Assembly: GCA_030646295.1 (NCBI GenBank)
Contig: JAUSND010000012.1
Coordinates: forward strand, 39,723-63,722
Reading direction: 5' to 3'
Source: Moraxellaceae bacterium
Lineage (GTDB): Bacteria > Pseudomonadota > Gammaproteobacteria > Pseudomonadales > Moraxellaceae
Length of the DNA stretch: 24,000 nt
The notes beneath the pieces were generated by a model. The model ran no database searches. It saw only the letters and a program-made list of their open reading frames with translations, and was not told the DNA's origin. This document shows positions 192-15,466 of the stretch, one piece after another (within the stretch, counting starts at the first letter, position 1; the number at the start of each line of letters is the position of its first letter). The position numbers were made by a program, and so were the translations under genes.

Positions 192-3164
192 ATGCGCATG
201 CTACTCGTTCCCCTGATCCTGCTCGGTCTGCTGGCCGGCTGCGGTGACAAGCAAACAGCAACCCTGCCCGCATCATGGTCGGGCTCGACCGGCCTTTTGT
301 ATGCCTTTCCCCATGACAGCCAGACTCGCATCGCCCCGGCGGCGCCGGTCGTACTGCAATTCTCCAACCCCGTGCAGGCGGCCAGCGGCACCCTCGCCGA
401 CGCCTTCCGGATTGAAGATGATGCCGGCCTGCCGGTAACGTTCACTGCGTCCGCCACCAACGGGGGGCGTGGTGTCTACCTGCTGGCAGCCGCTCCCGGC
501 CTGCGCGAGAACACGCGTTACCACGTGAGCTGGAGCGGTCTCGATGCAGCCGATGGTGCCGTGCAACCGGTACCACTGTCGTTTACCACCCGCCCGGCCA
601 ATCAGGGCCCCGACAGCCTGACCCGCAGCGACAGCACGTTCAGGGTTGAGCGCGCCCTGCCGGTACAGACCAACTTCCCCTTCATGGACTTCTCCACCGT
701 GCGCCTGCAGCTCACCCAGCCGGTGGACACCCGCAGCCTGGTTTACGGCGGCAGCGTGCGCCTTGAGGATGGCAGCGGGACGCTGGTGCCGGCACGGGTG
801 CTGGCCAACCGCCAGTTGCTCAGTATTGACCCGGTCAACGACCTGCAGCCGGGCCAACCTTACACCCTGAAACTGACCCCGGACCTGCTCAGCACCCAGG
901 GTCAGGCACTGGTGCCCGGCACCTACGCCAGCCTTTCCCTGCGGCCAAAAAACTCGGCCCCGCGTGAAACCATTGCCCTGGAAGTACCGTCCACCGCCGT
1001 GACCTCGCCCCTCACCGGCAAGATCATCAACAACGTGCCCATCACCTCGCGCCTGCTTGGCAATGACAGCGCCTCGCAGCAGGGTGGCAGCCTCTACGCC
1101 GAACTGGCCTTTGTGCCCAACTACCCCGAGGCGACACCGTTGCGGGTACCGCGCGGCAACCTGCTCAACGGCAGCAGCGTTGACGTGCAGATCGTCGGCC
1201 GTGTGCCGGCCGGGCTCAATACCGGCGCCATCAGCGTCAGCATTGTCTCCGACGCCACCGGCTACATGACCGCCAACCCCTACAGCACCGCAGTGGATGC
1301 GCCCCGCCTGGTCTACCTGACCATGGACGCGGCCATGTCCTCCTCCACGCCTTCGGCCAATGGCGCCTTCAACCAGAACCTGTTGCATATCGATCTGGTG
1401 GGCACGGCCATCGTCAGGAACGGCCGTCTGGTCATGGATGCCGTGGGCGTGGCCGAGCTGGAGGTACTGGGCCTGGACCAGGCCGCCGGTGTGCTTTCCT
1501 TCCACCTTGAGGGGTATGCCGACCAGACCCTGACACCCGCCAAGCCTGCCGACCTCACCCCGCCGGCGCTGCAATCCTGGCTGCCGGGCAACGAATCCCT
1601 GCGCACCCGGCCCGGTGACCCGATCATCCTGACCTTCACCGAACCACTGGACCCGCAAAGCGTCACCAGCACCAGCGTCCTGCTGAGCAAGGACGGCGTC
1701 AGCGCCGCCGTTGACCTGCGTACCGATGGCAGCTCCGTGGTGATCCGGCCGCAACAGCCGCTGGCCCACAATGCCGACTACCGCGTGCAGTTCAGCGCCG
1801 GTCTCACCGATCTGGCCGGCAATCCCGCAACGCCGCTCAGCCTGGACTTCCGCCTGCCCGATCTGGCCAGTCCCGGCAGCCGCTCGCCAGTGGTGCTGGC
1901 CAGCTACCCCGGTTATCCCTGCGTGACCAGCGGCCGCAATGTCGCGGCCAACCAGCAAGGGCGCTGCGTTGGCGGCAAGGCCGGCGATGACATCCTGCCA
2001 CTGCCGACCCTGCCGACTGAACGCCTGATCCAGGTACAGTTCTCGCAAAGCCTGAATCCGGCCAGTATCCAGCTCGGCACGGCCTGCGCCAGCGGCAGCT
2101 TCCGGGTTGAACGCATGAGTGCGGGCGGCAGTTGCCTGGGTGCCGTGCCGGGCCGGCTCGAAGTCGCCAGCCAGTCGCTGCGCTTCGTGCCCGACCAGCC
2201 GTGGACCGCAGGCGAGCTCTACCGCTACACACTTGTTTCCAACGGCAACAGCCAGTCCTCGGTGGCCACCTGTGACGGCTCCCAGGCCATCTGCGGCAGC
2301 AACGGCCTGCCGCTGCAGACCCAGACCCTGGCGCAGACACCAGCCAGCGCTCCCACAGCCACTGGCGGCGGGACCCCCATGGAGATCTGGTTCCGTGGCG
2401 GCAATGCAGCCGACACGGTGCTCCAGCGCCTGCGCAGCCTGCCGGCCACCGATGTAAATGCCAACTTTGTGTATGACGCCGGCGAAGCGGGGGCCGTGGA
2501 TACCGGGGGCGGCGTGTTTGCCGCACGCAATGGCAGCCGCATCATTACCACGGGTCAGAGCGGCCTGGTGACCGGCTCCAACATCGGCTGCCCTGTCGGC
2601 TCCACGTGTCCGGGGCAGCAGTTCCTCTACCTGAGCAGCACCCTTGATGCCGAAGTGGCCGGCTACGACGAGACAGCGGGGGGTGTGCGTGTGCTGATCC
2701 AGCCCACCCAGCTGATCGCCTCCAGCGTGACCGTGTATGCCACCAGCACCTTTGGCAACATCGTCTCGCCAACCGGACTGCAGGTCATGCGGGCACGCTA
2801 TGCCGTCAATCCTGCCAACGGCCAGCGCGAGCTGCCCATCACGGCTTACATCAAGGACAACGGCGGCCAGCCGCAACTGATGGCCACGCTTGATCTGTAT
2901 CTGGACCTGCCGACCCTGGCACCCAGCCTGATCGGCATCCCCATCAACCATGACCTCTACAGTTATCCGCTCACCGTGGCCGTGAGCGGGCCGGTGCAGT
3001 TCCTGCCCGACGGCCGCATGCTGGCTGTGCTGAAGAACACGGCCGACGTCAACCTGACGGTCTCGCTGAGTGCAGCAACCGTACTGCCCGGCGGCACTAT
3101 CAGCCTGCGCATACCGGCTGGCACCCTGCAAATGGAAGGGGTATCGGCGCCGATCAAGCAGTAA
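192..3164 (+). CDS. large surface/periplasmic lipoprotein with repeated SbsA/Big_5-type Ig-like domains (990 aa)
   Basis: Lipobox signal MRMLLVPLILLGLLAGC. Repeated modules of the type 'SVxxxSVxLxxxGxxVxxxxxxxGxxVxIxPxxPLxxNTxYxVxxxGLxDxAGNP' recur, for example SVTSTSVLLSKDGVSAAVDLRTDGSSVVIRPQQPLAHNADYRVQFSAGLTDLAGNP. An RBS precedes the start and a strong terminator follows the stop. Confidence 0.85.
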   Translation: MRMLLVPLILLGLLAGCGDKQTATLPASWSGSTGLLYAFPHDSQTRIAPAAPVVLQFSNPVQAASGTLADAFRIEDDAGLPVTFTASATNGGRGVYLLAAAPGLRENTRYHVSWSGLDAADGAVQPVPLSFTTRPANQGPDSLTRSDSTFRVERALPVQTNFPFMDFSTVRLQLTQPVDTRSLVYGGSVRLEDGSGTLVPARVLANRQLLSIDPVNDLQPGQPYTLKLTPDLLSTQGQALVPGTYASLSLRPKNSAPRETIALEVPSTAVTSPLTGKIINNVPITSRLLGNDSASQQGGSLYAELAFVPNYPEATPLRVPRGNLLNGSSVDVQIVGRVPAGLNTGAISVSIVSDATGYMTANPYSTAVDAPRLVYLTMDAAMSSSTPSANGAFNQNLLHIDLVGTAIVRNGRLVMDAVGVAELEVLGLDQAAGVLSFHLEGYADQTLTPAKPADLTPPALQSWLPGNESLRTRPGDPIILTFTEPLDPQSVTSTSVLLSKDGVSAAVDLRTDGSSVVIRPQQPLAHNADYRVQFSAGLTDLAGNPATPLSLDFRLPDLASPGSRSPVVLASYPGYPCVTSGRNVAANQQGRCVGGKAGDDILPLPTLPTERLIQVQFSQSLNPASIQLGTACASGSFRVERMSAGGSCLGAVPGRLEVASQSLRFVPDQPWTAGELYRYTLVSNGNSQSSVATCDGSQAICGSNGLPLQTQTLAQTPASAPTATGGGTPMEIWFRGGNAADTVLQRLRSLPATDVNANFVYDAGEAGAVDTGGGVFAARNGSRIITTGQSGLVTGSNIGCPVGSTCPGQQFLYLSSTLDAEVAGYDETAGGVRVLIQPTQLIASSVTVYATSTFGNIVSPTGLQVMRARYAVNPANGQRELPITAYIKDNGGQPQLMATLDLYLDLPTLAPSLIGIPINHDLYSYPLTVAVSGPVQFLPDGRMLAVLKNTADVNLTVSLSAATVLPGGTISLRIPAGTLQMEGVSAPIKQ

Positions 3165-3185
3165 CGGCAGCGGATCACCGCACAT

Positions 3186-3217
3186 AAAAAAGCCCGTCGC
3201 GATGACGGGCTTTTTTA
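3186..3217. terminator. bidirectional rho-independent terminator
   Basis: Stem gcccgtc (3192-3198) pairs with gacgggc (3204-3210). It is flanked by an A-run (3186-3191) and a T-run (3211-3216), and lies between convergent genes. Confidence 0.75.
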
Positions 3218-3252
3218 TGTCATTTTGCGGGCAGCTTCAGGGCAACCTCAGG

Positions 3253-4236
3253 TCACCTTGCCTGCGCCGAGGCCACCTGCTTGCCGTCCTGGCACGTGTC
3301 GGCCTCGTCACCGATCACCCACACCCCCAGCAGGCGATGCACCAGCCCGCCCGGCTTGAGCACGGTAAACCACAGCAGCGCCAGCGCCAGCGGCAGGCCG
3401 ATGACGTAGCTGAGCACGTGCATGCCGGTGTTGGCCGGGATGTGGCCCAGACCGCGCGCCACGTGATTGCCCACGCCCAGTGCCGCCCCCACGTAATTCA
3501 CTACCACGGCCGAGAAGATGGCCGCGCCCAGGGCAATGACAAAGACCGCCAGCAGATAGCGCCCCAGCATGCGCAGACCAAAGCCCGTGCTGCGCACCGA
3601 CAGGTCCGGCCGCCCGCCATGCCGGCCCTCGGCACGCAGGCCCTCGGTGTACCAGCAGAACATCAGCACTCCGAACGGCGGCAACAGGTAGACGCCATCC
3701 AGATACAGGGTGAACGCCACGCCCGAGGTGAGAAAGGCCAGCACCGCCGGGAAAAATCCTGCCAGCGTGGTGGCGCCGCTCACGCCCGGCGTCCACGCCG
3801 GCGAGCCGGCCACCATGTCGCGGTCGTAGAAAAAGCGGTCAAAGCCCAGACCGTCCCAGCCATAGACCAGAATGAAGAACATGCCGAAGTAGCCCAGCAT
3901 CCAGTTAAGGTTGGCCAGGTAGATCTTGTTCTGGCGCAGCAACAGCACGCCCACCCAGAAGCCCAGGATGCCCTGCGTAATGTTGGTCAGGCCAAAACCC
4001 AGAATGAGAAACTCGTTCATGCTGGCCAGACTGTCCGCCGCCTGCATCGTCTCCCACGAGGGGTGCCGTATCAGCAGCAGCATGCCCGTGGGCGCCCAGC
4101 ACAGCGCCAGAAACAGCACCGTCCAGACAAAGTATTTGCTCTCGAACGGCTTGTCGCGCTTTACCAGCTGGCGGCCAGCCCCCAGCGCCAGACTGGCCCC
4201 AAACCCATAAGCCCAGAACACATCGACTTCGACCAT
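3253..4236 (-). CDS. multi-pass integral membrane protein of unknown function (327 aa)
   Basis: The sequence is strongly hydrophobic with about 8-9 predicted TM stretches. RBS GGAGAAGG lies 5-6 nt upstream of the ATG (reverse complement of 4240-4250). The 402-aa ORF on the opposite strand is Arg/Gln/His-rich junk. Confidence 0.8.
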   Translation of the reverse strand: MVEVDVFWAYGFGASLALGAGRQLVKRDKPFESKYFVWTVLFLALCWAPTGMLLLIRHPSWETMQAADSLASMNEFLILGFGLTNITQGILGFWVGVLLLRQNKIYLANLNWMLGYFGMFFILVYGWDGLGFDRFFYDRDMVAGSPAWTPGVSGATTLAGFFPAVLAFLTSGVAFTLYLDGVYLLPPFGVLMFCWYTEGLRAEGRHGGRPDLSVRSTGFGLRMLGRYLLAVFVIALGAAIFSAVVVNYVGAALGVGNHVARGLGHIPANTGMHVLSYVIGLPLALALLWFTVLKPGGLVHRLLGVWVIGDEADTCQDGKQVASAQAR

Positions 4237-5132: not shown

Positions 5133-7565
5133 ATGATCTGCCGTTGCCGTAGTGATACAGGATGTACCCGGCTCTGCCACCGCCTCACGGCAGGCGTTGT
5201 GCTATGGCTTTGCCTGCTGGCAACGTCGGCCTTTGCGGCACCCCGCGTGTTGCTGCTCAACTCCTACCATCCGCAATTCGCCTGGGCGGCGCAGCTGACA
5301 CTCGGCGTGCAGCAGGCACTGGCCGGCCACATTCCCGAAGAAAACCTGCACATCGAATTTCTGGACGGCCGCCGCATGGTCGACGATCCCGCCTACCTGG
5401 CCCAGCTGAAAATTCTGCTCAAGCATAAATACGCCCGCTTTCCACCCGACGTCATCATCAGCAGTGACGACTACGCCTACGACCTGCTGTTGTCATCACG
5501 CGACGAGCTCTTCGGCCCCGACACACCCGTCGTCTTCTGCGGCGTGAATGTGTTTGATCCACTACGACTCAAGGGCAAAAAACATTTCACCGGCCTGCTT
5601 GAAGGCATGGAGATCGCAGGCAACCTGAACCTCATCCAGCAGATGCAGCCCGATGTGCAACGCATCATCATGCTCACTGATCGCACCACCTTCGGTGCAC
5701 GCATGGCGTCCGAGGCCCGACGCATGATGCAGCAGCGCGCCGGCAAGCCGGGGCCGCGTGTAGAACTCTGGGACGACTTCACTCAGGACGAACTGTGGCA
5801 ACGACTGCGGCAATTGCCGCCACGCTCGGCCATTCTCATGCTGGCCATCCACCAGACACGCGATAACCGCTACTTTTCCTTTGCCGAACACCTGCCACTG
5901 GTGTCCCGCAACGGTCACGCACCGGTCTACGGCATGTGGGGCGCCCTCATGATCGGCAACGGCGCCATCGGCGGACTGATGAACGACCCCCACCAGCACG
6001 GACATGCCGCCGCCAAGGTGGCACTCGATATTCTGGCCGGAACGCCGGCCGATGCCATTGCGATCCTGCCGCAATCGCAATTCAGTCCGCAGTTTGATTA
6101 TCGCGAACTGCAACGCTTCCGCATCAGCATGCAACGTCTGCCCGCCGGCAGCAGGCTGTTTTTCCGCCCCCCCAGTTTTTACGAAACCCACCGGCCCGTG
6201 TTGCTTGGCAGCCTTGCCGTTGTTGTCGGCCTGCTGGTCATCATCGGCCTGCTGGTCAATCGCAACCGGCGTCGCACCCATGTCACCGAACTGCTCGCCG
6301 ACGCCAACCGCCAGCTTGAGGTTCGCGTGCAAGAACGCACCGCCGAGCTGAGCGAAGCCAAGGCCAGTTCCGAAGCCGCAAACGCAGCCAAAAGCCTGTT
6401 CCTGGCCACCATGAGCCACGAAATCCGCACGCCCATGAACGGCGTCATCGGCCTGCTGGAATTGCTGCAGCAGGAATCACTGCCGCCGGAGCAGCAAGAA
6501 ATGCTGCACGCCGCCAACGACTCGGCCCACACACTGATGCAAATCCTCGACGACATCCTGGATTTCTCGCGCATCGAGTCCGGCCGCATGCAACTGGACT
6601 GCATTCCCTTCAATCCGGACGGTGTCGCGCGCAGCGTGATCATGACGCTGAAGCCTGTTGCTGCCACCAAAGGCCTGCGCCTGTCGTATGCCAACGGTCA
6701 TGCACCGTTGCCCGCCTGCATGGGTGATCCCGGTCGAATACGGCAAGTCCTGCAGAATCTGGTCAACAACGCCATCAAGTTCACGCCCGCCACGCCGGCC
6801 AGCAATGAAGACGAAGTGGTGATCAGCATCGCGGTGACCGGACAACAGGAAGACCGCATCACGCTCGTGATCAGCGTCAGGGACCGCGGCATCGGCATGA
6901 ATGACGAGGCGAGGGCGCAACTCTTCCAGCCCTTTACCCAGGCCGACAGCTCCATCACGCGCCGCTTTGGCGGCAGCGGCCTCGGACTGTCGATCTGCAA
7001 ACGCCTGGTCGACCTCATGGGCGGCAGCATCGAGGTACACAGCCAGCCGGACAAGGGCAGCGAATTCCGCATCCAGCTCACGCTGCCGCTGGCCGACAGT
7101 GCCGAGCATGTGGAGCAGCACTTTTCCTCCAGTGCCGTCATCGCCCGCCAGCCCATGGAAGATCTGGCCGAGGCCGAAGCGCAGGGCCGGCTCATCCTGC
7201 TTGCCGAAGACAATCCCGTTAACCAGCAGGTCGCCATTCGCCAGCTGGCATGGCTGGGTCATCCTTGTCTGCTTGCCACCAACGGCATCGAAGCACTCGC
7301 CCTGTGGCAGCAACATCGCATTGGCCTGATCCTGAGTGACGTGCAAATGCCGGACATGGATGGCCTGAGCCTGACACGGGAAATCCGTCGGCGCGAAAGT
7401 GAAAACCAGTTACCGCACACGCCGATTGTTGCCATGACCGCCAGCGCACTCACCGACGATACCGCGCATTGCCTGCGCGCCGGCATGGACGACTTTCTGG
7501 CCAAACCGGTTGAGCTCGGCGTGCTCAGGCAACGCCTGGACCGGTGGTTGCCACCACCGAAATAA
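5133..7565 (+). CDS. hybrid sensor histidine kinase/response regulator with a periplasmic ABC-substrate-binding-like sensor domain
   Basis: The ORF begins at GTG 5127, but the ATG at 5133 has GGAG at 5122-5125. There is a signal/TM segment, then a periplasmic domain ([14 protein letters not shown]...) and the TM helix [18 protein letters not shown]. Kinase motifs follow: H-box [11 protein letters not shown], then [16 protein letters not shown] and [11 protein letters not shown]. The C-terminal receiver reads [10 protein letters not shown]...[10 protein letters not shown]...AMTA...K. Confidence 0.9.
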
Positions 7566-8320: not shown

Positions 8321-9232
8321 TCAGTTCGCCTGCCGGCAATCCCCCAGAACCAGACCGCCCGGCTGCATGTCGATAACCGTGCCGGTTAGCGTGGCGAAGT
8401 TGCCTTCCGACAGGGTGAGGAAGAACTTGGCCTGGTCTTTGGCCAGTGCGCATTTGATCTGGTAGTTGAGGTCGTTGAACTGGGTTTCCTGACGCACGCC
8501 GAGCAGGCCGCGGGTTTGCGTGACCAGATAATTCACGGCCATGTCGCCGTGCAGGGGCGAGCCGGTAACGGTGTAGATCTGCCCGTCCACGCGGTATTTG
8601 CGGCCGATGTATTTGGCGCGCACCGAGGCAAAGGCCTCTTCGTATTCACCCGATGATGCCGATACACCGGTGCCGATCAGGGCACGGCTCAACTGGCCCT
8701 TGGCCGCCACGGGCGACAGCGCCTTTTTCACCACCTTGCCGATTTCGGCGGAGAGCTTTTCGGCCTTGGCATCCGTTACCTTGTTTATGCCGGTTTTCTC
8801 GCGCGCGGCAGCGGCGATGGCGTCGCCTTCCTTGCCGGTCTTGAGCTTTGCCAGCAGCGAACAGAATTCCGTGCGCACGGCGGCGGCTTCGGTTTTCTGG
8901 CCACGGGCCAGCTTGGTGCTGATGCTTACCTTGCCCGACTTGTCGGCCGTGGCCAGCATCACGATGGCAGGATTGTTGCTGTCCTGGATGAAATACAGCT
9001 CGCCGGCACCACCCTTGATGAGCTCGCCACCCACTTTGTAGCCGCCATCCAGCGCAATCTGCTGCAACTGCCCCAGCGCACTCTGCGCACTCAGGCCTTG
9101 CACCTTCACCTGCCCGGAAAAGAACAGGCCGTTACGGGGATCACCCACTGACTGAAAACCGTCTTCGCAGCTCTGCGCCAGCGCAAAACCCGAAAGCATC
9201 ACAAGACCTGCTGCGAAAACTGCCTTATTCAT
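8321..9232 (-). CDS. secreted/periplasmic protein of unknown function (303 aa)
   Basis: Sec signal MNKAVFAAGLVMLSGFALA-QS. The mature part is Lys/Ala-rich and soluble. Host-like GC content. Confidence 0.8.
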   Translation of the reverse strand: MNKAVFAAGLVMLSGFALAQSCEDGFQSVGDPRNGLFFSGQVKVQGLSAQSALGQLQQIALDGGYKVGGELIKGGAGELYFIQDSNNPAIVMLATADKSGKVSISTKLARGQKTEAAAVRTEFCSLLAKLKTGKEGDAIAAAAREKTGINKVTDAKAEKLSAEIGKVVKKALSPVAAKGQLSRALIGTGVSASSGEYEEAFASVRAKYIGRKYRVDGQIYTVTGSPLHGDMAVNYLVTQTRGLLGVRQETQFNDLNYQIKCALAKDQAKFFLTLSEGNFATLTGTVIDMQPGGLVLGDCRQAN

Positions 9233-9306
9233 GGGTATCCACCTGATTCCTGCCTATACGTTCGGCACAAATTCTGCCTGCCGCCACGCTGGCCTGTCCA
9301 GCCAAA

Positions 9307-9380
9307 GCGGGCACCGTGCAATGGTACTACCCTAGCTTCCCAAGCTAGAGCCGTGGGTTCGATTCCCATCGCCCGCTCCA
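9307..9380 (+). tRNA. tRNA-Gly(CCC)-like gene with a degenerate 5' third (possible pseudo-tRNA)
   Basis: A 74-nt cloverleaf can be drawn, with anticodon loop ttCCCaa, T-arm gtggg-ttcgatt-cccat and an encoded CCA. Three features look defective: C at position 8, an A7.C66 acceptor mismatch, and a D-stem C13.C22 mismatch plus a G.U pair. The 3' 53 nt are identical to the tRNA at 11766-11839. Confidence 0.5.
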
Positions 9381-9457
9381 CTGTTTTACAAGGGTTTTAA
9401 CCATACAGGCCCCTCGTCCTGAGGGCACTGTTATGACTTTTGTGGCCCCTTCTAGCC
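9328..9457. repeat. left arm of a 130-bp perfect inverted repeat (3' 53 nt of the tRNA plus 77 nt of 3' flank)
   Basis: I checked by hand, base by base, that this arm is the exact reverse complement of 11689-11818. Imperfect similarity continues outward to about 9281 (blocks cgctggc and gtccagcc) and more weakly inward (cgcacaagga at 9496-9505 versus 11667-11676). Confidence 0.92.
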
Positions 9458-9540
9458 ATACTTCCTTTCTTCACCATTTCCCCTAATGAGTTGCTCGCAC
9501 AAGGATTACTAGCGCCGCCATGAAATGTGATTGGAGGAAA

Positions 9541-10518
9541 TCATATGTCCGAAGTCTCGGCGGAAGGAGTTGATGACAATATGTCCCTCTTTAGCCGATC
9601 AACTTCTTTGAAATATTTTCTAAGCAAGCTTGAATAAAACCCAGGATCTACATGCCTGCAATATGCTAAATGACCTAGCAAGGACCTTTTGTCTTCATCC
9701 CGCAAAGAGCCCTTGCAATAAAGACTCAACATTAGTCTTACGTGATCCTTCTGCTTTCGATGAATTGTTACATGGCCATCCTCGCAAACCTTTAAGCCCG
9801 TCACTAAGGCCGAGCCACCAGAACTGCTTCCAATCTTTGTTTTCGATGGATTCAGCGCGAGTCGTGGCGAGCTCATGCTGCTAATGGCCTCGGATACCTC
9901 TTTAAATATCCCACCACATGCACCTTTGGTATTGGTGGAAAAAACAAGATCATCCGCATAGCGTGTGTAAACACACTTTCCGTATTTCCCGGAGCTCACA
10001 ATCAGCTTCGTGATGTGAATGTCAAAATCATTCATTACGATATTGCTGATTACGGGAGAGCTTGGGAAGCCAATGGGAAGGGTGTCATTTTTATAAAAAC
10101 AGGAAAGCCGTATAATCTCTTTTGCACGAGCATCCAACTCCCAGCCAGGGGCCTCTTGCTTATGCCACCTCTCCAAGATACCTATGAAGTCAGCATATTT
10201 AATGCTTGGGAAAAAATCCTTTAGATCCAATTTTAAAAAGAATCTATTGGCGGCATGATTCTTTGCGTTATCTAATATTGATAGCCCCGGGCGATATGCC
10301 GCTGCCGCGGCATGCACGGGAATTTTTGAGAACACATTATAAATTAACCAGTACTGTATGACTTTTAGTTTTTTTGACGGATGAAAGATGTCTCGAATCC
10401 CGCCATTTCTTTTTTTTATCCCAAACTTCTTGACGTCACGCCTAGCGACAAGTATGGCGCTTTTAATCACATCCTCAGTAATCCCAAGGTCCTTGGACAT
10501 TGTATCTTCAATGCGCAT
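9541..10518 (-). CDS. retron-type reverse transcriptase (325 aa)
   Basis: RT motifs occur in order: FGIKKRNGGIRDIFHPSKKLKVIQ, the retron-specific NAKNH (NAxxH), LDLKDFFPSI, LPIGFPSSPVISN, YTRYADDLVFS (YADD), LALNPSKTKI and the retron-specific ALVTGLKV (VTG). Size is typical of retron RTs. GGAG lies 9 nt upstream of the ATG, and the start overlaps the upstream gene by 11 nt. Confidence 0.9.
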   Translation of the reverse strand: MRIEDTMSKDLGITEDVIKSAILVARRDVKKFGIKKRNGGIRDIFHPSKKLKVIQYWLIYNVFSKIPVHAAAAAYRPGLSILDNAKNHAANRFFLKLDLKDFFPSIKYADFIGILERWHKQEAPGWELDARAKEIIRLSCFYKNDTLPIGFPSSPVISNIVMNDFDIHITKLIVSSGKYGKCVYTRYADDLVFSTNTKGACGGIFKEVSEAISSMSSPRLALNPSKTKIGSSSGGSALVTGLKVCEDGHVTIHRKQKDHVRLMLSLYCKGSLRDEDKRSLLGHLAYCRHVDPGFYSSLLRKYFKEVDRLKRDILSSTPSAETSDI

Positions 10519-11422
10519 AAAGGCGCTCCGGATACCCCTTAAGGATGTAATTTCTAAATATTGCCATTAAGTCATGAGAGTCAAATCTGTAATAATAATA
10601 GGTCTTTCCCAGCCTGCTTCTAAAAAGTCCGTTCCCATCTCTCTCGATAGACGCGAATGCAGACAGAATTGCCAAATGCTGCCTTAGCTTGAAATCGCCA
10701 TCTCCAAATATAATTTTTAAAATCTCGATGAGTTCTTTGTATGTGATTGGGCCAGTAAAATACACAAGATCATGAACAAACATTACGGATATTTTTGTGA
10801 ATTTTTGGGATGGATTGCAAGATACTAAATCAATGGGGGATCGCTTCGTTTTGATTGGGTCTTTTAGTAAATTAAAAATTCCCAAGAAGGTGTCGCCTAT
10901 TGCATCAAGGTGATCTACCCCATCAGGGCTCATCTTGTAGTGAATGATTTTATTTTTCCCTGCAGCCTCCTCAATGGCCTGAATGGGGCCTAGGTTGATA
11001 AAGGATTTTGCTGCTTTAAATTTATCATCATTGATTACTATTAGTTTTTTTCTTAAATCGTTATGAGAGAACGCGCCCAACTCCGTGTAAGAGCTCGGGC
11101 TCTCAAGGACGATAATGATATGGTCTGCGAACTGGGTTATTTCATGTTCCACATCAAGAATATTTTCTTTGTGCCCCTCATCTTGAAGGGTGGAAAATAC
11201 TCTCTCCGCGAGAAAGAACTGGGCATACTCTAAATGCGATTTGGAGAACCCAATCAGCGCTTTTCTGCGCTCAGAGATGGTGCCATCTGATTTGTTTGCG
11301 CCACAAAGGAATACAAACTTAGAGACCATTGCGGGAAGGTATACATTGGATCCCGAAACAGCCGCCTTTAGGCTCAATATTCCATCGCGCAATAGTTTCT
11401 TTTTCTTTATTTCATAAAGCAT
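10508..11422 (-). CDS. retron effector candidate: N-terminal nucleoside 2-deoxyribosyltransferase-like (NDT/TIR-like) domain plus C-terminal winged-helix-like domain (304 aa)
   Basis: The N-terminal half shows the NDT-like pattern: FVFLCGA (aa 36-42), then ADHIIIVLESPSSYTELGAF (aa 99-118, acidic residue plus Gly after a beta-strand). The C-terminal part (ITYKELIEILK...LRQHLAILSAFASIERDG) looks like a wHTH. The gene lies directly upstream of the RT and is translationally coupled to it (ATGCGCATTGA overlap), as with rcaT-rrtT in retron Sen2. The call rests on motifs only; no alignment was run. Confidence 0.6.
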   Translation of the reverse strand: MLYEIKKKKLLRDGILSLKAAVSGSNVYLPAMVSKFVFLCGANKSDGTISERRKALIGFSKSHLEYAQFFLAERVFSTLQDEGHKENILDVEHEITQFADHIIIVLESPSSYTELGAFSHNDLRKKLIVINDDKFKAAKSFINLGPIQAIEEAAGKNKIIHYKMSPDGVDHLDAIGDTFLGIFNLLKDPIKTKRSPIDLVSCNPSQKFTKISVMFVHDLVYFTGPITYKELIEILKIIFGDGDFKLRQHLAILSAFASIERDGNGLFRSRLGKTYYYYRFDSHDLMAIFRNYILKGYPERLYAH

Positions 11423-11582
11423 CTTAAAGCTTGCCTACTTAAGCATGCGTTTCTTCCGGACATGGAAGCCGCTGACTAGCGTCTTCCATGTCCGGAAGAA
11501 ACGCTAGAAAGCTAAAAAATTAAGGCAGAATGTGACTCACATCCCGATGGGCTCTCACCCATAATTGCTAGGCAATTTGATA
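11420..11582 (-). ncRNA. candidate retron msr-msd non-coding RNA
   Basis: On the minus strand, a1 TTGCCTA (11575-11569) is followed by G11568 in a uAGc context. Its complement a2 TAGGCAA lies at 11437-11431, and the pairing extends to about 14 bp with two bulges. Between them are two short msr-like hairpins (atggg/cccat and atgtg/cacat). A 58-nt hairpin at 11447-11504 has a 22-bp perfect stem, a 4-bp inner stem and a tetraloop, and no T-run follows it. The boundaries are a model, not measured. Confidence 0.45.
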
Positions 11583-11688
11583 ATACATAATGTTGCCACA
11601 AGGAAGAAGGTACGCCTGAAAGTAATAGCAATTACTTTGCGTGCACCGAGCCGTGCCGCAAGCAATTCCTTGTGCGGAGGGAAACTAG

Positions 11689-11818
11689 GGCTAGAAGGGG
11701 CCACAAAAGTCATAACAGTGCCCTCAGGACGAGGGGCCTGTATGGTTAAAACCCTTGTAAAACAGTGGAGCGGGCGATGGGAATCGAACCCACGGCTCTA
11801 GCTTGGGAAGCTAGGGTA
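11689..11818. repeat. right arm of the 130-bp perfect inverted repeat
   Basis: Exact reverse complement of 9328-9457. Degenerate similarity continues outward to about 11870. Confidence 0.92.
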
Positions 11819-11839
11819 TTACCATTATACGACGCCCGC
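11766..11839 (-). tRNA. tRNA-Gly (anticodon CCC), apparently intact
   Basis: The reverse complement reads gcgggcg-tc-gtat-aatggta-atac-c-ctagc-ttCCCaa-gctag-agcc-gtggg-ttcgatt-cccat-cgcccgc-t-cca. All stems pair, U8 is present and CCA is encoded. The acceptor stem, anticodon loop and T-loop closely match E. coli glyU-type tRNA-Gly(CCC). Confidence 0.9.
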
Positions 11840-11997
11840 TTAGGCTGGACTGATGCCAGCGGGTGCATGGTACGGATTCCGGCGCCGTTCGTCGACCTCC
11901 CCAAACATCTTTAGCCACCCTGCATCCAGATGCCCGCTGGCTCCGTACAGATACTCAGGCAGACAGGAGTTTGCCCCTATCTCCGGAGATCACGCTC

Positions 11998-12580
11998 ATG
12001 ACCATTTTCCACGATTCACTTCACGCCCCACTCCACGCCTCAAAGACCTTGCTGCCCATCGCCCTGCTTATGACACTGGCAGGCTGCCACACCATGGCGC
12101 CTTCCGCCCCGGCCTTCACGCAAGAGTCGCTGCCCGAGGCAGTCAAAGTGCCGGCGGGCCATGCCGTTGCACTGGAAACGGTTGGCGCAGGCGAGATTAC
12201 CTATGAATGCCGAGCCAAGGCCGACAACGCGGCGCTGGCGGACTGGGTGTTTGTTGGCCCGAAGGCCGAGCTGCGCGATCGTCGTGGCCGCCAGATCGGC
12301 ACCTACTTCGGGCCGCCCGCTACCTGCGGCCGCGCAGGATGGCTCCAGCATTACCGGCACCCAGGTGGCAATTGCACCGGCGGGCGCAGGCAACATTCCC
12401 TTCCAGCTGGTCAAGGCCAATGCCTCTGCCAACCCGGGCATGCTGGCCGGCACCGCCTATATCCAGCGCGTGGCGCTGAAAGGGGGCGCGGCACCCGCCA
12501 GTGCATGTTCCACCGCCACTGTGGGCACGCGTGAAACCGTGAACTATCAGGCCGATTACATTTTCTGGAAGGCCAGCTGA
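11998..12580 (+). pseudogene. DUF3455-family lipoprotein gene interrupted by a +1 frameshift near 12325-12333
   Basis: The ATG at 11998 has GGAG upstream, and the lipobox is LLMTLAGC. The first frame reads ...GTYFGPPAT, then becomes nonsense. The homologous continuation QDGSSITGTQVAIAPAGAGNIPFQLVKA...VNYQADYIFWKAS runs in the frame of ORF 12161-12580. One extra base within acctgCggccgcgcag would explain the shift. Confidence 0.7.
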
Positions 12581-12590
12581 GCGGGCATTT

Positions 12591-12626
12591 CCACTGAAAG
12601 GTGGCCGGCTGGCCGCTTTTCAGTGG
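12591..12626 (+). terminator. stem-loop downstream of the DUF3455 gene (weak terminator candidate)
   Basis: ccactgaaag...cttttcagtgg forms a stem of about 10 bp, with an inner ggcc/ggcc pairing. No T-run follows it, so its function is uncertain. Confidence 0.35.
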
Positions 12627-12780
12627 GGGCCTGATGCCGCACTCTCAGCGACCAGGCACCGGTGGTCGGGCCTGGCCGCCCGCTGGCACCCCTGACCACC
12701 GGATGGTGCACCCACGCACATTTCCGGATTTGCTTTTGTCATAGTCTGGCTGTCGTTGACTCCACCACCGACTCGCCGCC

Positions 12781-13626
12781 ATGCAACGCAATGTGAATGT
12801 GTATGCCGTGATTGTCTTCGCCATGCTCGCCGTGGCGCTTTTTGCTGGCTGGACCAGCTGGAGTGGCTATCGCCTATCCGGCACGCCACCGCAGATACAG
12901 GTGCTGCTGGATGCCCTGCGCTGGTTTGTTATCACCCAGGCCCTGATGACGCTGCTGGTGCTGGCCACCTTGGGCGGCATCTATCGCCTGTTGCGCGGGC
13001 GTGACCAGCGCGAGGCGGCCTCCCGTGCCGCCATGGCCAGTGCCCACGCAGAAGTCCTGCACAGCCGGGAACAGATGCAGCGCCTGAATGACCGGCAGAA
13101 CGCCATGCTGGCGATGTCGCGCAAGGTGCAGTCGGCCATTGGCGTTGAGCAGTTCTCGCAGGTGTTGCTGGCAGAGCTGTGTACGGCCTGCGATGCCACT
13201 GTCGGCATGGTCTGGCTTAACCGGGGCAAGGTCGGGCTGCGTTGCGTGGCCTCGCGGTGTATCAGTGGTATGGGGGGTAGCACAGGGGGGCGGCAACTGG
13301 AGCTGGACGAAGGCGAGGGCATGGTGGGTCAGGTGGCGGCATCCGGCCGCATGACCAGTTACGCAGTGCCACCGGGCTATCTGCATATAGAAAGCGGCAG
13401 CCTGAGCCTGGTGCCGGCCTGCACCATCCTGCTGCCGGTGCGCTATCAGGATGAGACGGTCGCCGTGTTCGAGTTTGCGCTCTTGGCGCCGCCCGATGCC
13501 GACAAGCTGGGCTTTGTGCGGGAGATGCTGGAGTCGATGGCGGTGCGCTACTTCATGTTCAGTTCGCGCGAAAACCCGGACTCGGTGCCGCTGTCGGTGC
13601 GGCGCACGCTGGCGGCCACGGCCTGA
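12781..13626 (+). CDS. membrane-anchored GAF-domain protein without a recognisable output domain (281 aa)
   Basis: Two N-terminal TM helices are followed by a coiled-coil-like linker. The GAF-like core includes FSQVLLAELCTACDATVGMVWL...EGEGMVGQVAASGR. Confidence 0.75.
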   Translation: MQRNVNVYAVIVFAMLAVALFAGWTSWSGYRLSGTPPQIQVLLDALRWFVITQALMTLLVLATLGGIYRLLRGRDQREAASRAAMASAHAEVLHSREQMQRLNDRQNAMLAMSRKVQSAIGVEQFSQVLLAELCTACDATVGMVWLNRGKVGLRCVASRCISGMGGSTGGRQLELDEGEGMVGQVAASGRMTSYAVPPGYLHIESGSLSLVPACTILLPVRYQDETVAVFEFALLAPPDADKLGFVREMLESMAVRYFMFSSRENPDSVPLSVRRTLAATA

Positions 13627-13678
13627 AAGGCCAGGGCCGCATCAGTCCTCAACAAGACAGACCTCAATCAAGCATCCG

Positions 13679-14110
13679 TCAGATATCAATCAGGCAGCGG
13701 TACTGGCCCTGTTGCCCGTGCGGAATGAAGCCCATGGCCAGCAGCATCTCCGGAATGCCTTCCTGGGTAAGGTCAAAGTCGGCCTCCAGCCAGCGCGTCT
13801 TGCGCTCCAGCTCCAGGCGACGCACCTCTTCTACCAGACGGTCGGCCACGCCTCGGCCACGGGTGGCATGGTGCACACAGAGGTAGCGCAGGTAGCGGGT
13901 ATCGGTCTCGCCGCGCACCAGTACCGAGGCGATGTAGTGACCATTGAAAACGCCTACATAGAGGGTATCGCCATCAGTGATGGCATCGGCCAGTACCTGC
14001 ACCGCGGCGGCGGCAGACACAAACTCCGGAGAGTCGGCATAGACCTTCTCCAGATCGGCAGCAATGTGCGCGGAGAGGGGGGCGGCGGCAACCGAAACCA
14101 GAAGAGGCAT
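13679..14110 (-). CDS. GNAT-family acetyltransferase-fold protein, PanZ/PanM-like (143 aa)
   Basis: The real gene is the C-terminal 143 codons of the 521-aa ORF, starting at the ATG at 14108-14110. It carries the acetyl-CoA motif LCVHHATRGRGVADRLVEEV. The remainder of the long ORF is antisense to hisB/hisH. Confidence 0.7.
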   Translation of the reverse strand: MPLLVSVAAAPLSAHIAADLEKVYADSPEFVSAAAAVQVLADAITDGDTLYVGVFNGHYIASVLVRGETDTRYLRYLCVHHATRGRGVADRLVEEVRRLELERKTRWLEADFDLTQEGIPEMLLAMGFIPHGQQGQYRCLIDI

Positions 14111-14202
14111 GACAACTCCAGCAAATAACCCACAGGACGATGCGGACGGTAGCACAAAGCCCGGCCTTTGTGGCCCCGGGTGCCTGCCGGGAGCGGGCAG
14201 GG

Positions 14203-14208
14203 TATAAT
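14203..14208 (+). promoter_or_regulatory. candidate -10 box (TATAAT) for the his cluster
   Basis: A perfect TATAAT lies 29 nt upstream of the hisB ATG. The -35 region is only weak (gtgcct). Confidence 0.3.
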
Positions 14209-14236
14209 GCCGTTTTGATCCCGCACGAGTTCCCCC

Positions 14237-14830
14237 ATGACTGCTCGCCAGGCCGAAGTCGTTCGCAATACCAATGAAACCCGCATCCGCGTTGCCATCA
14301 ATCTGGACGGCACCGGACAGGGCAAGCTCAACACCGGCATGCCCTTCCTGGACCACATGCTGGACCAGATCGTGCGGCATGGCCTGATCGACCTCGACAT
14401 CACCTGCGAGGGCGACCTGCACATCGATGCCCACCACAGCGCCGAAGACACCGGCATCACGCTGGGTCAGGCGTTTGCCAAAGCGCTTGGCGACAAGAAA
14501 GGCATCCGTCGTTATGCACATGCCTATGTGCCGCTGGACGAAGCTCTTTCGCGCGTGGTGATCGACATCTCCGGCCGCCCCGGTCTGGAATTCAACGTGG
14601 AATACACCCGTGCCCGTGTCGGCGATTTCGACGTGGACCTGTTCTATGAATTCTTTCAGGGCTTTGTGAATCACGCCGGCATGACCCTGCACATTGACAA
14701 CCTGCGTGGCCGCAATGCGCATCACCAGATTGAAACCGTGTTCAAGGCCTTTGCACGCGCCCTGCGCGGTGCCGTGGAGCTTGATCCGCGCATGCAGGGC
14801 GTGATGCCGTCCACCAAGGGCAGCCTGTAA
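14237..14830 (+). CDS. hisB: imidazoleglycerol-phosphate dehydratase
   Basis: [18 protein letters not shown]...[19 protein letters not shown]...[11 protein letters not shown] is the canonical monofunctional HisB. Length is 197 aa. Confidence 0.95.
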
Positions 14831-14833
14831 TCC

Positions 14834-15466
14834 ATGACAACCGTTGCTGTTCTGGATTACGGCATGGGCAACCTGCACTCGGTGGCGAAAGCCCTTGAGC
14901 ATGTGGGTGCCAGCCGCGTGGAAGTCACCAACGATCCGGTGCGCGTGCGCGCGGCCGATCGCATTTTGCTGCCCGGTCAGGGTGCCATGCGCGACTGCAT
15001 GGCCGAGATGAAGCATTACGGTGTGGATGCCGAGGTGCGCGAAATCATCGGCAACAAGCCAATGCTCGGCATTTGTGTCGGCATGCAGGCACTGCTGGCG
15101 CGCTCGGAAGAAAACAACGGCGTGGATGGCCTGGGCATTTATGCCGGCGACGTGAAATTCTTCGGCAATGACCGCGTGGAAAATGGCGAAAAGCTGAAAG
15201 TTCCGCACATGGGCTGGAACGAAGTCTGGCAGACGCAGGCGCACCCGTTATGGAGCGGCATTGCCGATGGCAGCCGCTTCTATTTTGTGCACAGCTATTA
15301 TTGCGCGCCGACCGATCCTGCGTTGTGTGCCGGCAAGTCGCATTACGGTCTGGACTTCTGTTGCGCCCTGGCGCGCGACAACATGTTTGCCGTGCAGTTT
15401 CATCCGGAAAAGAGTTCGACCGCAGGCCTGACCTTGCTGAAGAACTTCCTTAACTGGGCTCCCTGA
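14834..15466 (+). CDS. hisH: imidazole glycerol phosphate synthase, glutamine amidotransferase subunit
   Basis: [22 protein letters not shown], the catalytic GICVGMQ, and HSYY...QFHPEKS. The start is 4 nt after the hisB stop. Confidence 0.95.

Follow-up and report, generated by a model that had tools for sequence, protein, structure and literature searches.

A retron in the window, which is the whole 24,000-nt stretch of Moraxellaceae DNA analysed here, lies at the centre of a large palindrome whose arms each carry a copy of tRNA-Gly(CCC). How such a cassette came to sit between inverted tRNA copies, and whether a dedicated mechanism of movement is needed to explain it, is the question raised by the locus. 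The original prediction described a perfect 130-bp palindrome around the retron, with each arm made of the 3' 53 nt of the tRNA and 77 nt of its 3' flank. As explanations it proposed that the arms had recently undergone gene conversion or inversion, or that an unusual capture or insertion mechanism was at work.

Anatomy of the inverted repeat

Both the palindrome and the make-up of its arms are confirmed by exact reverse-complement matching over 130 nt. A repeat search extends the inverted pair to 9296-9474 and 11672-11850 at 93% identity. In 24 kb, a perfect inverted repeat of 130 nt cannot be chance. The core consists of two features:

9328-9457, plus strand: left perfect arm, the exact reverse complement of 11689-11818; made up of the tRNA 3' 53 nt, a middle segment of 31 nt (9381-9411) and a retron tail of 46 nt (9412-9457)
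11689-11818, minus strand: right perfect arm, the exact reverse complement of 9328-9457; an inverted copy of the 46-nt tail (11689-11734), the 31 nt (11735-11765) and the tRNA 3' 53 nt

The inner end of the core is a 16-nt indel, and the outer end is a cluster of mismatches in the tRNA 5' part. Five differences lie in that part (9313, 9314, 9318, 9319 and 9327), and 137 of the 138 positions from 9320 to 9457 match the other arm. GC content is ~40% between the arms versus ~62% outside them.

The two tRNA copies had been regarded as full-length genes. The left copy is indeed full-length, but it is degenerate, and the two are not equivalent:

11766-11839, minus strand: native intact tRNA-Gly(CCC), called by ARAGORN; Rfam 63.5 bits, zero non-standard pairs
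9307-9380, plus strand: left tRNA-Gly(CCC)-like copy, probably a pseudogene; no ARAGORN call, Rfam 40.2 bits
11840-11890, minus strand: upstream (promoter) region of the native tRNA, forming the outer diverged right arm; 95% conserved in relative L018 and present in relative L020

The right copy is the native tRNA gene, since L018 and L020 keep it beside the right flank, and a tRNA of the same orientation lies by the left flank of L024. Non-standard pairs at 7:66 (A7:C66) and 13:22 (C13:C22) and C8 in place of U8 mark the left copy. Its score against Rfam RF00005 exceeds the gathering score of 29, yet ARAGORN rejects it. The left copy is counted as non-native because of these defects, and its sequence makes a decayed pseudogene most likely.

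The retron between the arms

The predicted retron is real. A complete, low-GC type II-A (St85/Sen2-family) retron, comprising an msr-msd, an NDT-like effector and a reverse transcriptase (RT), occupies the space between the arms:

9541-10518, minus strand: retron RT, 325 aa; PADLOC RT_II-A 1.6e-93 over residues 1-306
10508-11422, minus strand: retron effector, NDT-like, STM3845/RcaT family, 304 aa; PADLOC NDT_II-A 2.2e-46
11431-11575, minus strand: msr-msd non-coding RNA, from the consensus fold of five family members; a2 at 11569-11575, a1 at 11431-11437, msd hairpin at 11447-11504
11576-11654, minus strand: unique region upstream of the msr, the presumed retron promoter from its position
9458-9540, minus strand: RT-downstream non-coding region, part of which (9474-9517) has a degenerate inverted copy at 11655-11688

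The RT is further supported by Pfam RVT_1 (3.2e-22), a YADD active-site motif in the translation and the NCBI name 'retron St85 family', and PF28093 STM3845 is recorded for the effector protein. As in Retron-Sen2 (St85) and type II-A retrons, the order is msr-msd, effector, RT, and the effector gene, upstream of the RT, overlaps its start by 11 nt. The a1/a2 pairing and the long msd hairpin are likewise shared, here with covariation: the consensus fold of five loci has 52 pairs, 13 of them with compensatory changes. The a2/a1 pair TTGCCTA/TAGGCAA is (near-)invariant, its core GCCTA/TAGGC being paired in all five loci and the outer two pairs in four of the five. The fold z-score of the msr-msd is -6.4. 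The presumed promoter region is not conserved in other family members. RT identity to most members is 53-62%, with one relative at 86%. By its gene content, the element is a predicted anti-phage system of type II-A.

The 77-nt arm flank

Whether the 77-nt flank travels with the retron or with the tRNA has a divided answer: the inner 46 nt go with the retron, and the outer 31 nt are found nowhere else. In the closest retron relative, L007 (82% nucleotide identity overall), homology reaches window position 9412 in an unrelated genomic context, which delimits one further feature:

9412-9457, minus strand: retron tail with a hairpin (GCCCTCAGGACGAGGGGC on the minus strand), downstream of the RT; homologous to L007

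One stem change in this hairpin relative to L007 is compensated (C to T with G to A). Neither the 46-nt nor the 31-nt segment has an exact or degenerate match in viral contigs or JGI metagenome contigs, and 9381-11765 gives zero BLAST matches in plasmids or phages. A simple scan of the 77-nt flank for an intrinsic terminator misses the conserved hairpin, and the fold z-score is only -1.5; a terminator role is speculative. L007 is the sole close retron relative and its msr side is missing, so the tail could natively flank both ends of the retron.

A tail that accompanies the retron in L007 would fit a transposon-like cassette with terminal inverted repeats of its own, formed by the tail and the RT-downstream sequence at both ends, mobilised in trans and given its tRNA parts by conversion. 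Many St85-family retrons assemble as isolated contigs of ~2.1-2.3 kb, and restriction-modification cassettes flanked by inverted repeats without mobility genes are documented (PMC2853133). However, terminal inverted repeats are absent from three isolated retron contigs (~2.2 kb), and flanking ones from two long loci, L008 (Vibrio breoganii) and L011 (JGI metagenome). In the present locus, the arms hold host sequence, namely a tRNA with the region upstream of it; relatives that lack the retron have the outer left arm; a target-site duplication was not identified; and the msr side of L007 is missing. A cassette of this kind is accordingly very improbable.

Palindromic flanks are not a general trait of St85-family retrons, since the other loci examined lack comparable arms. 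The Vibrio breoganii loci L008-L010, L011 and the short Logan contigs L012 and L013 carry no tRNA, and among the family members examined only this retron lies between inverted tRNA-Gly copies. In published work, Sen2-like retrons are placed "directly in the chromosome" or else within dusA/integrase islands (PMC11701397). The proposed unusual capture or insertion mechanism finds no evidence, as the other St85-family loci examined have neither flanking tRNAs nor terminal inverted repeats.

Assembly evidence

In the Logan assembly of SRR13727526, one unitig of 2,291 bp is identical to window positions 9428-11718, and each of its ends falls 30 nt within an arm. In a k=31 graph, this means that both junctions between arm and unique centre exist in reads, and the independent assembly thus speaks against an artefact, the concern raised originally. 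The source is a metagenome-assembled genome (MAG), and the orientation of the centre rests on the assembler. Because assemblers can erase small differences between repeat copies, "perfect" may overstate the identity of the core.

An artefact would take the form of a chimeric path through common tRNA k-mers or of popped variant bubbles. Besides the metagenomic source, the occurrence of the tRNA in other organisms of the sample is compatible with it, and Logan contig L006 starts where the 31-mer first includes the base upstream of the tRNA. It is nevertheless highly improbable: the unitig of the second assembler enters the arm by 30 nt at both ends in opposite orientations, relative L020 links both outer flanks across the locus on a single contig, and an assembler would not create diverged homology around the core.

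The locus in relatives

Two flanking genes bound the locus:

8321-9232, minus strand: left-flank core gene, 303 aa, without a Pfam family; syntenic in L001-L004, L020 and L022-L029
11998-12580, plus strand: right-flank lipoprotein gene (DUF3455) with a frameshift; two reading frames match Pfam DUF3455

Compared with L020, whose intact gene encodes 197 aa, the frameshifted copy has a single additional C near 12327. Relatives of the right flank (GAF protein) in JGI metagenomes numbered zero, and the protein database was used instead.

Relatives without the retron have a single native tRNA at this site. L020 has both flanks, one tRNA-Gly on the minus strand and an Mrr gene where the retron sits here. 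In L018, the same tRNA has the same orientation, and 158 nt of its upstream flank are 95% identical. L024 is a nearly empty site, with the left-flank gene, ~170 nt and then the tRNA in minus orientation. The comparison with an empty site therefore yields one tRNA-Gly(CCC) each in L020 and L024, in the orientation of the right copy.

The same boundaries enclose differing contents in L002, L004, L020 and L022-L025, and every relative has a different sequence directly beyond the 3' end of the tRNA. The region from the left flank to the tRNA 3' end is a cassette-swapping hotspot, given the Mrr gene in L020 and the near-empty site in L024. No arms similar to those of the retron were found around the Mrr cassette of L020.

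An ancestral palindrome in strains without the retron had been named as an alternative. The outermost left arm does occur in three such relatives, but identical 77-nt flanks occur in none. One relative MAG has a second, oppositely oriented tRNA-Gly on the left-flank side. Together with the outermost left arm in relatives, this indicates that an inverted tRNA-Gly duplicate predates the present strain. An Infernal search beside the left flank of L002 did not find a decayed left tRNA at E <= 10.

Diverged homology around the core

Identity between the arms had been described as collapsing outward of the core. The five differences in the tRNA 5' part stand, but homology persists beyond them. The proximal 35 nt upstream of both copies align with a score of 26 versus 8.3 +/- 3.2 for shuffled sequences, and 0 of 500 shuffles reach 26. 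This outward homology covers the tRNA 5' part and ~45 nt upstream at ~80% identity. On the inner side, 11655-11688 aligns to 9474-9517 with two deletions at ~79% identity (p <= 0.001 versus shuffles). The corresponding features are:

9255-9306, plus strand: outer diverged left arm, an inverted copy of the tRNA upstream region, from the shuffle test; the outer limit near 9255 is approximate
11655-11688, plus strand: inner diverged right arm, a degenerate inverted copy of the RT-downstream region, from a gapped alignment to 9474-9517

The outer left arm sits between the start of the left-flank gene (9232) and the left tRNA copy and contains the hairpin GCTGGCCTGTCCAGC at 9288-9302. Left-arm sequence to about 9302 is common to relatives L002, L004 and L020, all without the retron. 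GCTGG...CCAGC hairpins are frequent in this genome (6 found versus 0.73 expected), and part of the outer-homology evidence is weakened because the hairpin is a common genome motif. The outer ends of the old repeat are diffuse, and no target-site duplication was identified outside the repeats.

On one side the inner homology spans just 34 nt, and its alignment requires two gaps. A simple inward extension of 17 nt, anchored and ungapped, matches at 10/17 positions and is not significant (p ~0.1); only the gapped alignment is. In a manual comparison, whose register automatic alignment missed, 11655-11688 shares several states with the outgroup L007 that the left copy has lost.

These observations bear on whether the whole repeat could stem from a single recent event, with no older repeat. 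Repair of a break after the retron had landed would have copied the opposite junction, with tRNA homology priming either synthesis-dependent strand annealing or template switching, and closure by microhomology would have left a 130-bp inverted duplication. The perfect identity of 130 nt takes in retron-derived sequence, and similarity just inside the arms is weak (the same 10/17, not significant by itself), both as expected of such an event. Priming, however, needs a pre-existing inverted tRNA copy, which is already an older repeat. Significant diverged homology lies on both sides of the core, and the outer left arm is found in relatives without the retron. A single event is therefore unlikely. 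The significant outer and inner homology and the outer left arm in these relatives argue that the inverted repeat is older than its perfect core.

Proposed history

Of the explanations first put forward, the best fit is a recent gene conversion or inversion involving the two arms, with the amendment that the core lies inside older inverted homology of ~78-80%. The evidence tips modestly towards an old inverted duplication of ~230-260 bp, within which a recent gene-conversion or inversion tract would have been halted by heterology. The locus is an unusual rearrangement by an ordinary mechanism, not a new way of moving genes.

The anatomy, the hotspot, the single native tRNA of relatives, the link of the tail to the retron and the diverged homology flanking the core are shown by the sequences; we infer how the events followed one another, how the first duplication arose and that recombination made the core. 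Between the left-flank gene and the 3' end of the native tRNA, small defence or toxin cassettes are swapped with no integrase resident at the site. The retron, with its own 3' tail, would have arrived there, beside the tRNA 3' end. In a second, still early step, ~230-260 bp may have been duplicated, inverted, onto the other side of the retron. This block would have comprised the tRNA upstream region, the tRNA, the 31-nt segment, the retron tail and part of the RT-downstream region. The copies would then have diverged to ~78-80%, the left tRNA becoming a pseudogene and the right RT-downstream copy acquiring deletions. Recently, a single homologous recombination between the arms, as gene conversion alone or with inversion of the cassette, may have rendered the central 130 nt (137/138) identical. 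Its tract would have halted inward at the 16-nt indel and outward at the mismatches in the 5' part of the tRNA. Since the old duplication would include retron sequence, this history requires the assumption that the ancestor of L002, L004 and L020 had the retron and lost it.

Comparison with known systems

As in tRNA-targeted islands, low-GC foreign DNA directly follows the 3' end of the tRNA, the tRNA's 3' part recurs at the far boundary, and the site is polymorphic among relatives. Classical traces of such islands occur at the same locus in relatives: L002 has a direct repeat and L001 an attR-like fragment. However, tRNA-targeted islands have direct attL/attR repeats and a tyrosine integrase, whereas here the repeats are inverted, the far copy is full-length, and the repeat includes 77 nt of non-tRNA DNA that is partly cargo. 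No direct repeat of the tRNA was found within 8500-12600. The claim that no recombinase is present holds: a Pfam scan of the window's open reading frames, including all long ones, detected no integrase, transposase or other recombinase domain.

A retron element bearing attP could have integrated at two opposite tRNA-Gly attB sites, its integrase acting in trans or later lost, with the giant palindrome trimmed by deletion to one retron between two attL-type junctions. The identity begins inside the tRNA and runs into non-tRNA DNA, as in attL. On this side of the locus, a tRNA-Gly copy of L002 holds an island with classical direct repeats, the attR-like 3' fragment of L001 is followed by the native terminator, and a Vibrio family member lies at the end of an integrase island. 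Two integrations and a precise deletion are required, however, and the window holds neither an integrase nor a remnant of one. The 31-nt and 46-nt segments are not found with any integrase or anywhere else, and the diverged RT-downstream copy at 11655-11688 is explained no better than by an old duplication. Such a double integration is quite improbable.

The restriction-modification cassettes of Furuta et al. (2010; PMC2853133) likewise combine a small defence cassette, long inverted repeats, no transposase or integrase, and a polymorphic site. Their repeats are unique to the inserted unit, which is flanked by 8-bp target duplications (PMC2853133). Here, in contrast, a host tRNA with its upstream region is part of the repeats, and a target duplication was not found.

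The proposed duplication and conversion have a parallel in inverted duplicate genes. Such genes, for example tufA and tufB of Salmonella, undergo gene conversion and inversion, and RecA-dependent exchange in pairs of this kind can invert the intervening segment. A perfect-identity tract within older, diverged inverted duplicates is common to both cases. The present locus differs in having a pseudogene as one partner and a tract made of non-coding DNA and DNA from the cargo, and its conversion or inversion is a putative event.

The locus shows turnover of integrase-free defence cassettes beside a tRNA gene, in which the tRNA is the conserved anchor and duplicated tRNA remnants are substrates for further recombination. 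It is also a caution against taking every tRNA repeat at the edge of an island for an integrase-derived att site. On present evidence, ordinary duplication and gene conversion account for this one locus.

Possible inversion of the cassette

The predicted RecA-mediated flipping of the retron cassette between its 130-bp arms is plausible. That the arms serve as a RecA-invertible switch of retron expression, with the repeat kept identical through use, would be a further step and appears a long shot. If true, inversion would be a reversible, population-level switch for a potentially toxic type II-A retron, and a cassette that truly inverts would illustrate, in a simple natural setting, how recombination can control a retron. 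At present the retron and the native tRNA-Gly promoter point the same way; flipped, the retron would read against that promoter.

The inverted repeat and its tRNA sequences

The retron lies between the arms of an inverted repeat whose core is perfect over 130 nt: as assembled, 9328-9457 and 11689-11818 are exact reverse complements of each other by direct comparison. An arm consists of 53 nt from the 3' end of a tRNA-Gly(CCC) plus the 77 nt that follow it, which bears out the palindrome of the original prediction. A repeat search extends the pair to 9296-9474 and 11672-11850 at 93% identity. The tRNA copies differ at 9313, 9314, 9318, 9319, and 9327, giving 137/138 identity over 9320-9457. GC content drops from ~62% outside the arms to ~40% between them.

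The palindrome had been read as two convergent tRNA-Gly(CCC) genes, which holds for the right copy but probably not for the left. The right copy (11766-11839, minus strand) is the only one of the two that ARAGORN calls and scores 63.5 bits with Rfam, with zero non-standard pairs. The left copy (9307-9377), which ARAGORN does not call, scores 40.2 bits, carries non-standard pairs at 7:66 and 13:22 and a C at position 8, where U is nearly universal, and is most likely a pseudogene.

The retron cargo

A complete type II-A retron occupies the minus strand between the arms:

9541-10518, minus strand, reverse transcriptase (RT; PADLOC RT_II-A, 1.6e-93; Pfam RVT_1)
10508-11422, minus strand, NDT-like effector of the STM3845/RcaT family (PADLOC NDT_II-A, 2.2e-46; PF28093)
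11431-11575, minus strand, msr-msd RNA gene (a2/a1 pairing and msd hairpin conserved in five family members)

In those five members, the a2/a1 pairing (TTGCCTA/TAGGCAA) and the long msd hairpin are conserved with 13 compensatory pairs. NCBI names the RT "retron St85 family", in a record from a Moraxellaceae MAG on a 273-kb contig. By every sequence-level criterion tested, the cargo is a type II-A retron of the St85/Sen2 family. The RT ATG falls inside the end of the effector gene, so that the two genes share 11 nt (10508-10518), and gene coordinates in loci L005, L007, L008, L011, L014, and L015 give an identical overlap. This shared arrangement suggests that the two genes may be translationally coupled.

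In agreement with the original prediction, Pfam scans of the window ORFs, all long ones included, gave no hit to an integrase, a transposase, or any other recombinase. The neighboring genes encode histidine-biosynthesis proteins, sensor kinases, proteases, and proteins of unknown function. The setting resembles that of tRNA-linked islands, but the direct repeats and integrase that define them are both missing. Published accounts place Sen2-like retrons either straight in the chromosome or inside dusA/integrase islands, in some cases through two successive steps (PMC11701397), and none of these accounts mentions palindromic tRNA flanks. A family member in Vibrio breoganii (L008; MCXN02000001.1, 4450-12400) lies at the far end of an island with CoiA-like and DUF5906 primase-like genes and a tyrosine integrase, adjoining dus and fis genes, a setting similar to the dusA/integrase contexts described for Vibrio retrons.

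The tRNA-Gly(CCC) site in related genomes

Two flanking genes, the one on the left at 8321-9232 and the GAF gene on the right at 12781-13626, served to retrieve relatives. In L020, a sediment metagenome contig, both flanks lie on a single contig (window 8565-9302 at 94% and 11766-15432 at 86%). Between them, a lone tRNA-Gly(CCC), oriented like the right copy, is accompanied by an Mrr restriction-endonuclease gene that takes the place of the retron; L020 has neither the left tRNA copy nor the inverted repeat. In L018, the native tRNA with 158 nt of upstream flank (95% identity) adjoins the GAF gene. The more distant L024 has the left-flank gene, ~170 nt, and then a tRNA-Gly 3' end in minus orientation, and is a nearly empty site. 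The tRNA count proposed as a check at the orthologous site is therefore one in L020, and the orientation and flanks of the tRNA in these relatives identify the right tRNA as the native gene.

The linked flanks in L020 also bear on whether the palindrome is an assembly artefact. The perfect identity of the arms and the orientation of the center rest on the assembly. However, a Logan unitig from an independent assembly (run SRR13727526) equals window 9428-11718, both ends reaching 30 nt into an arm, and an artefact is very unlikely.

Other, unrelated genes occupy the same place in L002, L004, and L022-L025, and the sequence directly past the tRNA 3' end is different in every relative. Given these varied contents, the interval from the left flank to the native tRNA 3' end is a cassette-exchange hotspot. 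In naturally transformable Moraxellaceae, cassettes may plausibly turn over through homology-facilitated illegitimate recombination that uses the conserved tRNA as its anchor.

The history of the site is nested. In L002, the closest long relative, three ORFs of unknown function are bracketed by a hybrid pseudo-tRNA-Gly (23.7 bits) and a direct repeat of the tRNA 3' fragment, in the orientation opposite to the native gene, which is a classical island signature. An inverted copy (15/18 nt) of the left-flank boundary motif lies ~190 nt from the tRNA 3' fragment. These L002 elements lie at 1-27, 217-234, 3558-3630, and 7027-7044. L004, from the same MAG as L018 (GCA_049655345.1), carries an additional tRNA-Gly, in opposite orientation, beside the left flank. 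The two flank contigs hold opposed tRNA-Gly(CCC) genes (L004 260-333 and L018 276-349) with one or two stem mismatches each, and the L004 contig terminates in the start of an IS3-family OrfA.

Origin of the arm sequence

In the closest retron relative, L007 (SRR22387801; RT 86% identical in amino acids, 82% nucleotide identity overall), the retron lies beside an IS66 element, without a tRNA. Homology between this retron and the window begins in the effector gene, spans the RT, and continues as far as 9412, 46 nt inside the left arm. This 46-nt tail forms a hairpin with a compensated stem change between the two retrons. Both observations link the inner 46 nt of the arm to the retron, and 11689-11734, upstream of msr, appears to be an inverted duplicate of this tail. 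The 31-nt segment at 9381-9411 has no match elsewhere in viral contigs, JGI metagenome contigs, plasmids, or phages. Whether the 77-nt flank travels with the retron or with the tRNA thus has a divided answer: the inner 46 nt go with the retron, and the remaining 31 nt have no match in those collections.

A retron-linked tail would fit a transposon-like cassette that brings terminal repeats of its own, an arrangement with a precedent in restriction-modification cassettes (PMC2853133). Terminal repeats are absent in the other family members examined, however, and the arms here include a host tRNA, which makes such a cassette distinctly improbable. Many St85-family RT matches (Logan/ENA) are on ~2.1-2.3 kb contigs, the size of a bare retron unit, suggesting that such cassettes are often inserted in some strains and not in others, and that assembly graphs break at their borders. 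Three such contigs were inspected and have no terminal repeats.

Diverged homology and proposed history

Outside the core, identity was originally described as collapsing to block-wise similarity over about 30 bp upstream. The two tRNA copies do differ at five places in their 5' part, but the 35-nt sequences upstream of them still align (score 26 versus 8.3 +/- 3.2 for shuffles; 0/500 reach 26). Past those 35 nt, the outward alignment signal is absent. Over the 35 nt and the five tRNA differences, divergence is ~22%. Inward, 11655-11688 aligns with 9474-9517 at ~79% identity with two deletions (16 and 10 nt; p <= 0.001). Where these inner copies differ, the right copy matches the outgroup L007 at several positions, by manual comparison in a register that automatic alignment missed, and both copies therefore look old. 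The perfect core appears to be embedded in an inverted repeat that is both longer and older. If the arms had arisen by one recent break-repair duplication, the diverged homology on both sides would be left unexplained, and this origin is rather unlikely.

The outermost left-arm sequence, including the hairpin GCTGGCCTGTCCAGC, occurs at the left-flank boundary of the retron-less L002, L004, and L020 and is absent in L024-type relatives. Hairpin stems alone carry little weight because GCTGG...CCAGC palindromes are common in this genome: short GC-rich GCTGG-loop-CCAGC palindromes number 6 versus 0.73 expected from shuffles (at 4167, 9288, 11844, 12844, 17795, and 21827). Two integrase-mediated insertions, into a pair of inverted att sites, with a later deletion would fit the attL-like outer boundary. 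That route needs more steps and has neither an integrase nor a known attP, and we consider it improbable.

We lean toward an old inverted duplication that diverged and whose core was recently homogenized by recombination. The retron, with its own 3' tail, would have arrived beside the native tRNA-Gly. A ~230-260 bp block, made up of the tRNA with its upstream region, the 31-nt segment, the tail, and some RT-downstream sequence, would then have been copied, inverted, to the opposite side of the retron. The copies would have drifted to ~80% identity while the left tRNA decayed. The central 130 nt may then have been homogenized by a recent homologous-recombination event involving both arms: gene conversion, or else a crossover with inversion of the cassette. 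The tract would end where heterology begins, at the 16-nt indel inside and the mismatch cluster outside. These ends and the diverged homology on both sides support the gene conversion or inversion first proposed, and the unusual insertion mechanism offered beside it finds no support. The locus neatly illustrates the recombination history of a defense hotspot, but it is a one-off accounted for by ordinary processes. It would be of greater interest if the retron were actively inverting, with orientation altering its coupling to the tRNA promoter.

Further features of the flanks

The right-flank DUF3455 lipoprotein gene (11998-12580) is in two frames, with one extra C near 12327 relative to the intact 197-aa gene in L020, and is wholly deleted in L018; either the gene is decaying or the split reflects a sequencing error within a run of Cs. 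In L028 (1-10000), a more distant relative whose left-flank protein is 78% identical, toxin-antitoxin and defense-like genes (PIN/PhdYeFM, MqsA-like, RelE, and a Schlafen-like helicase) crowd the DNA upstream of the left-flank gene, with no tRNA within 10 kb. The 5-kb contig L001, which has no integrase, carries an attR-like tRNA-Gly(CCC) 3' fragment followed by the native terminator. Adjoining the fragment is a TumE/TumA-type toxin-antitoxin pair (2725-3600; TumE toxin and HVO_A0114-type, TumA-like HTH protein), another small cassette beside a tRNA-Gly remnant.
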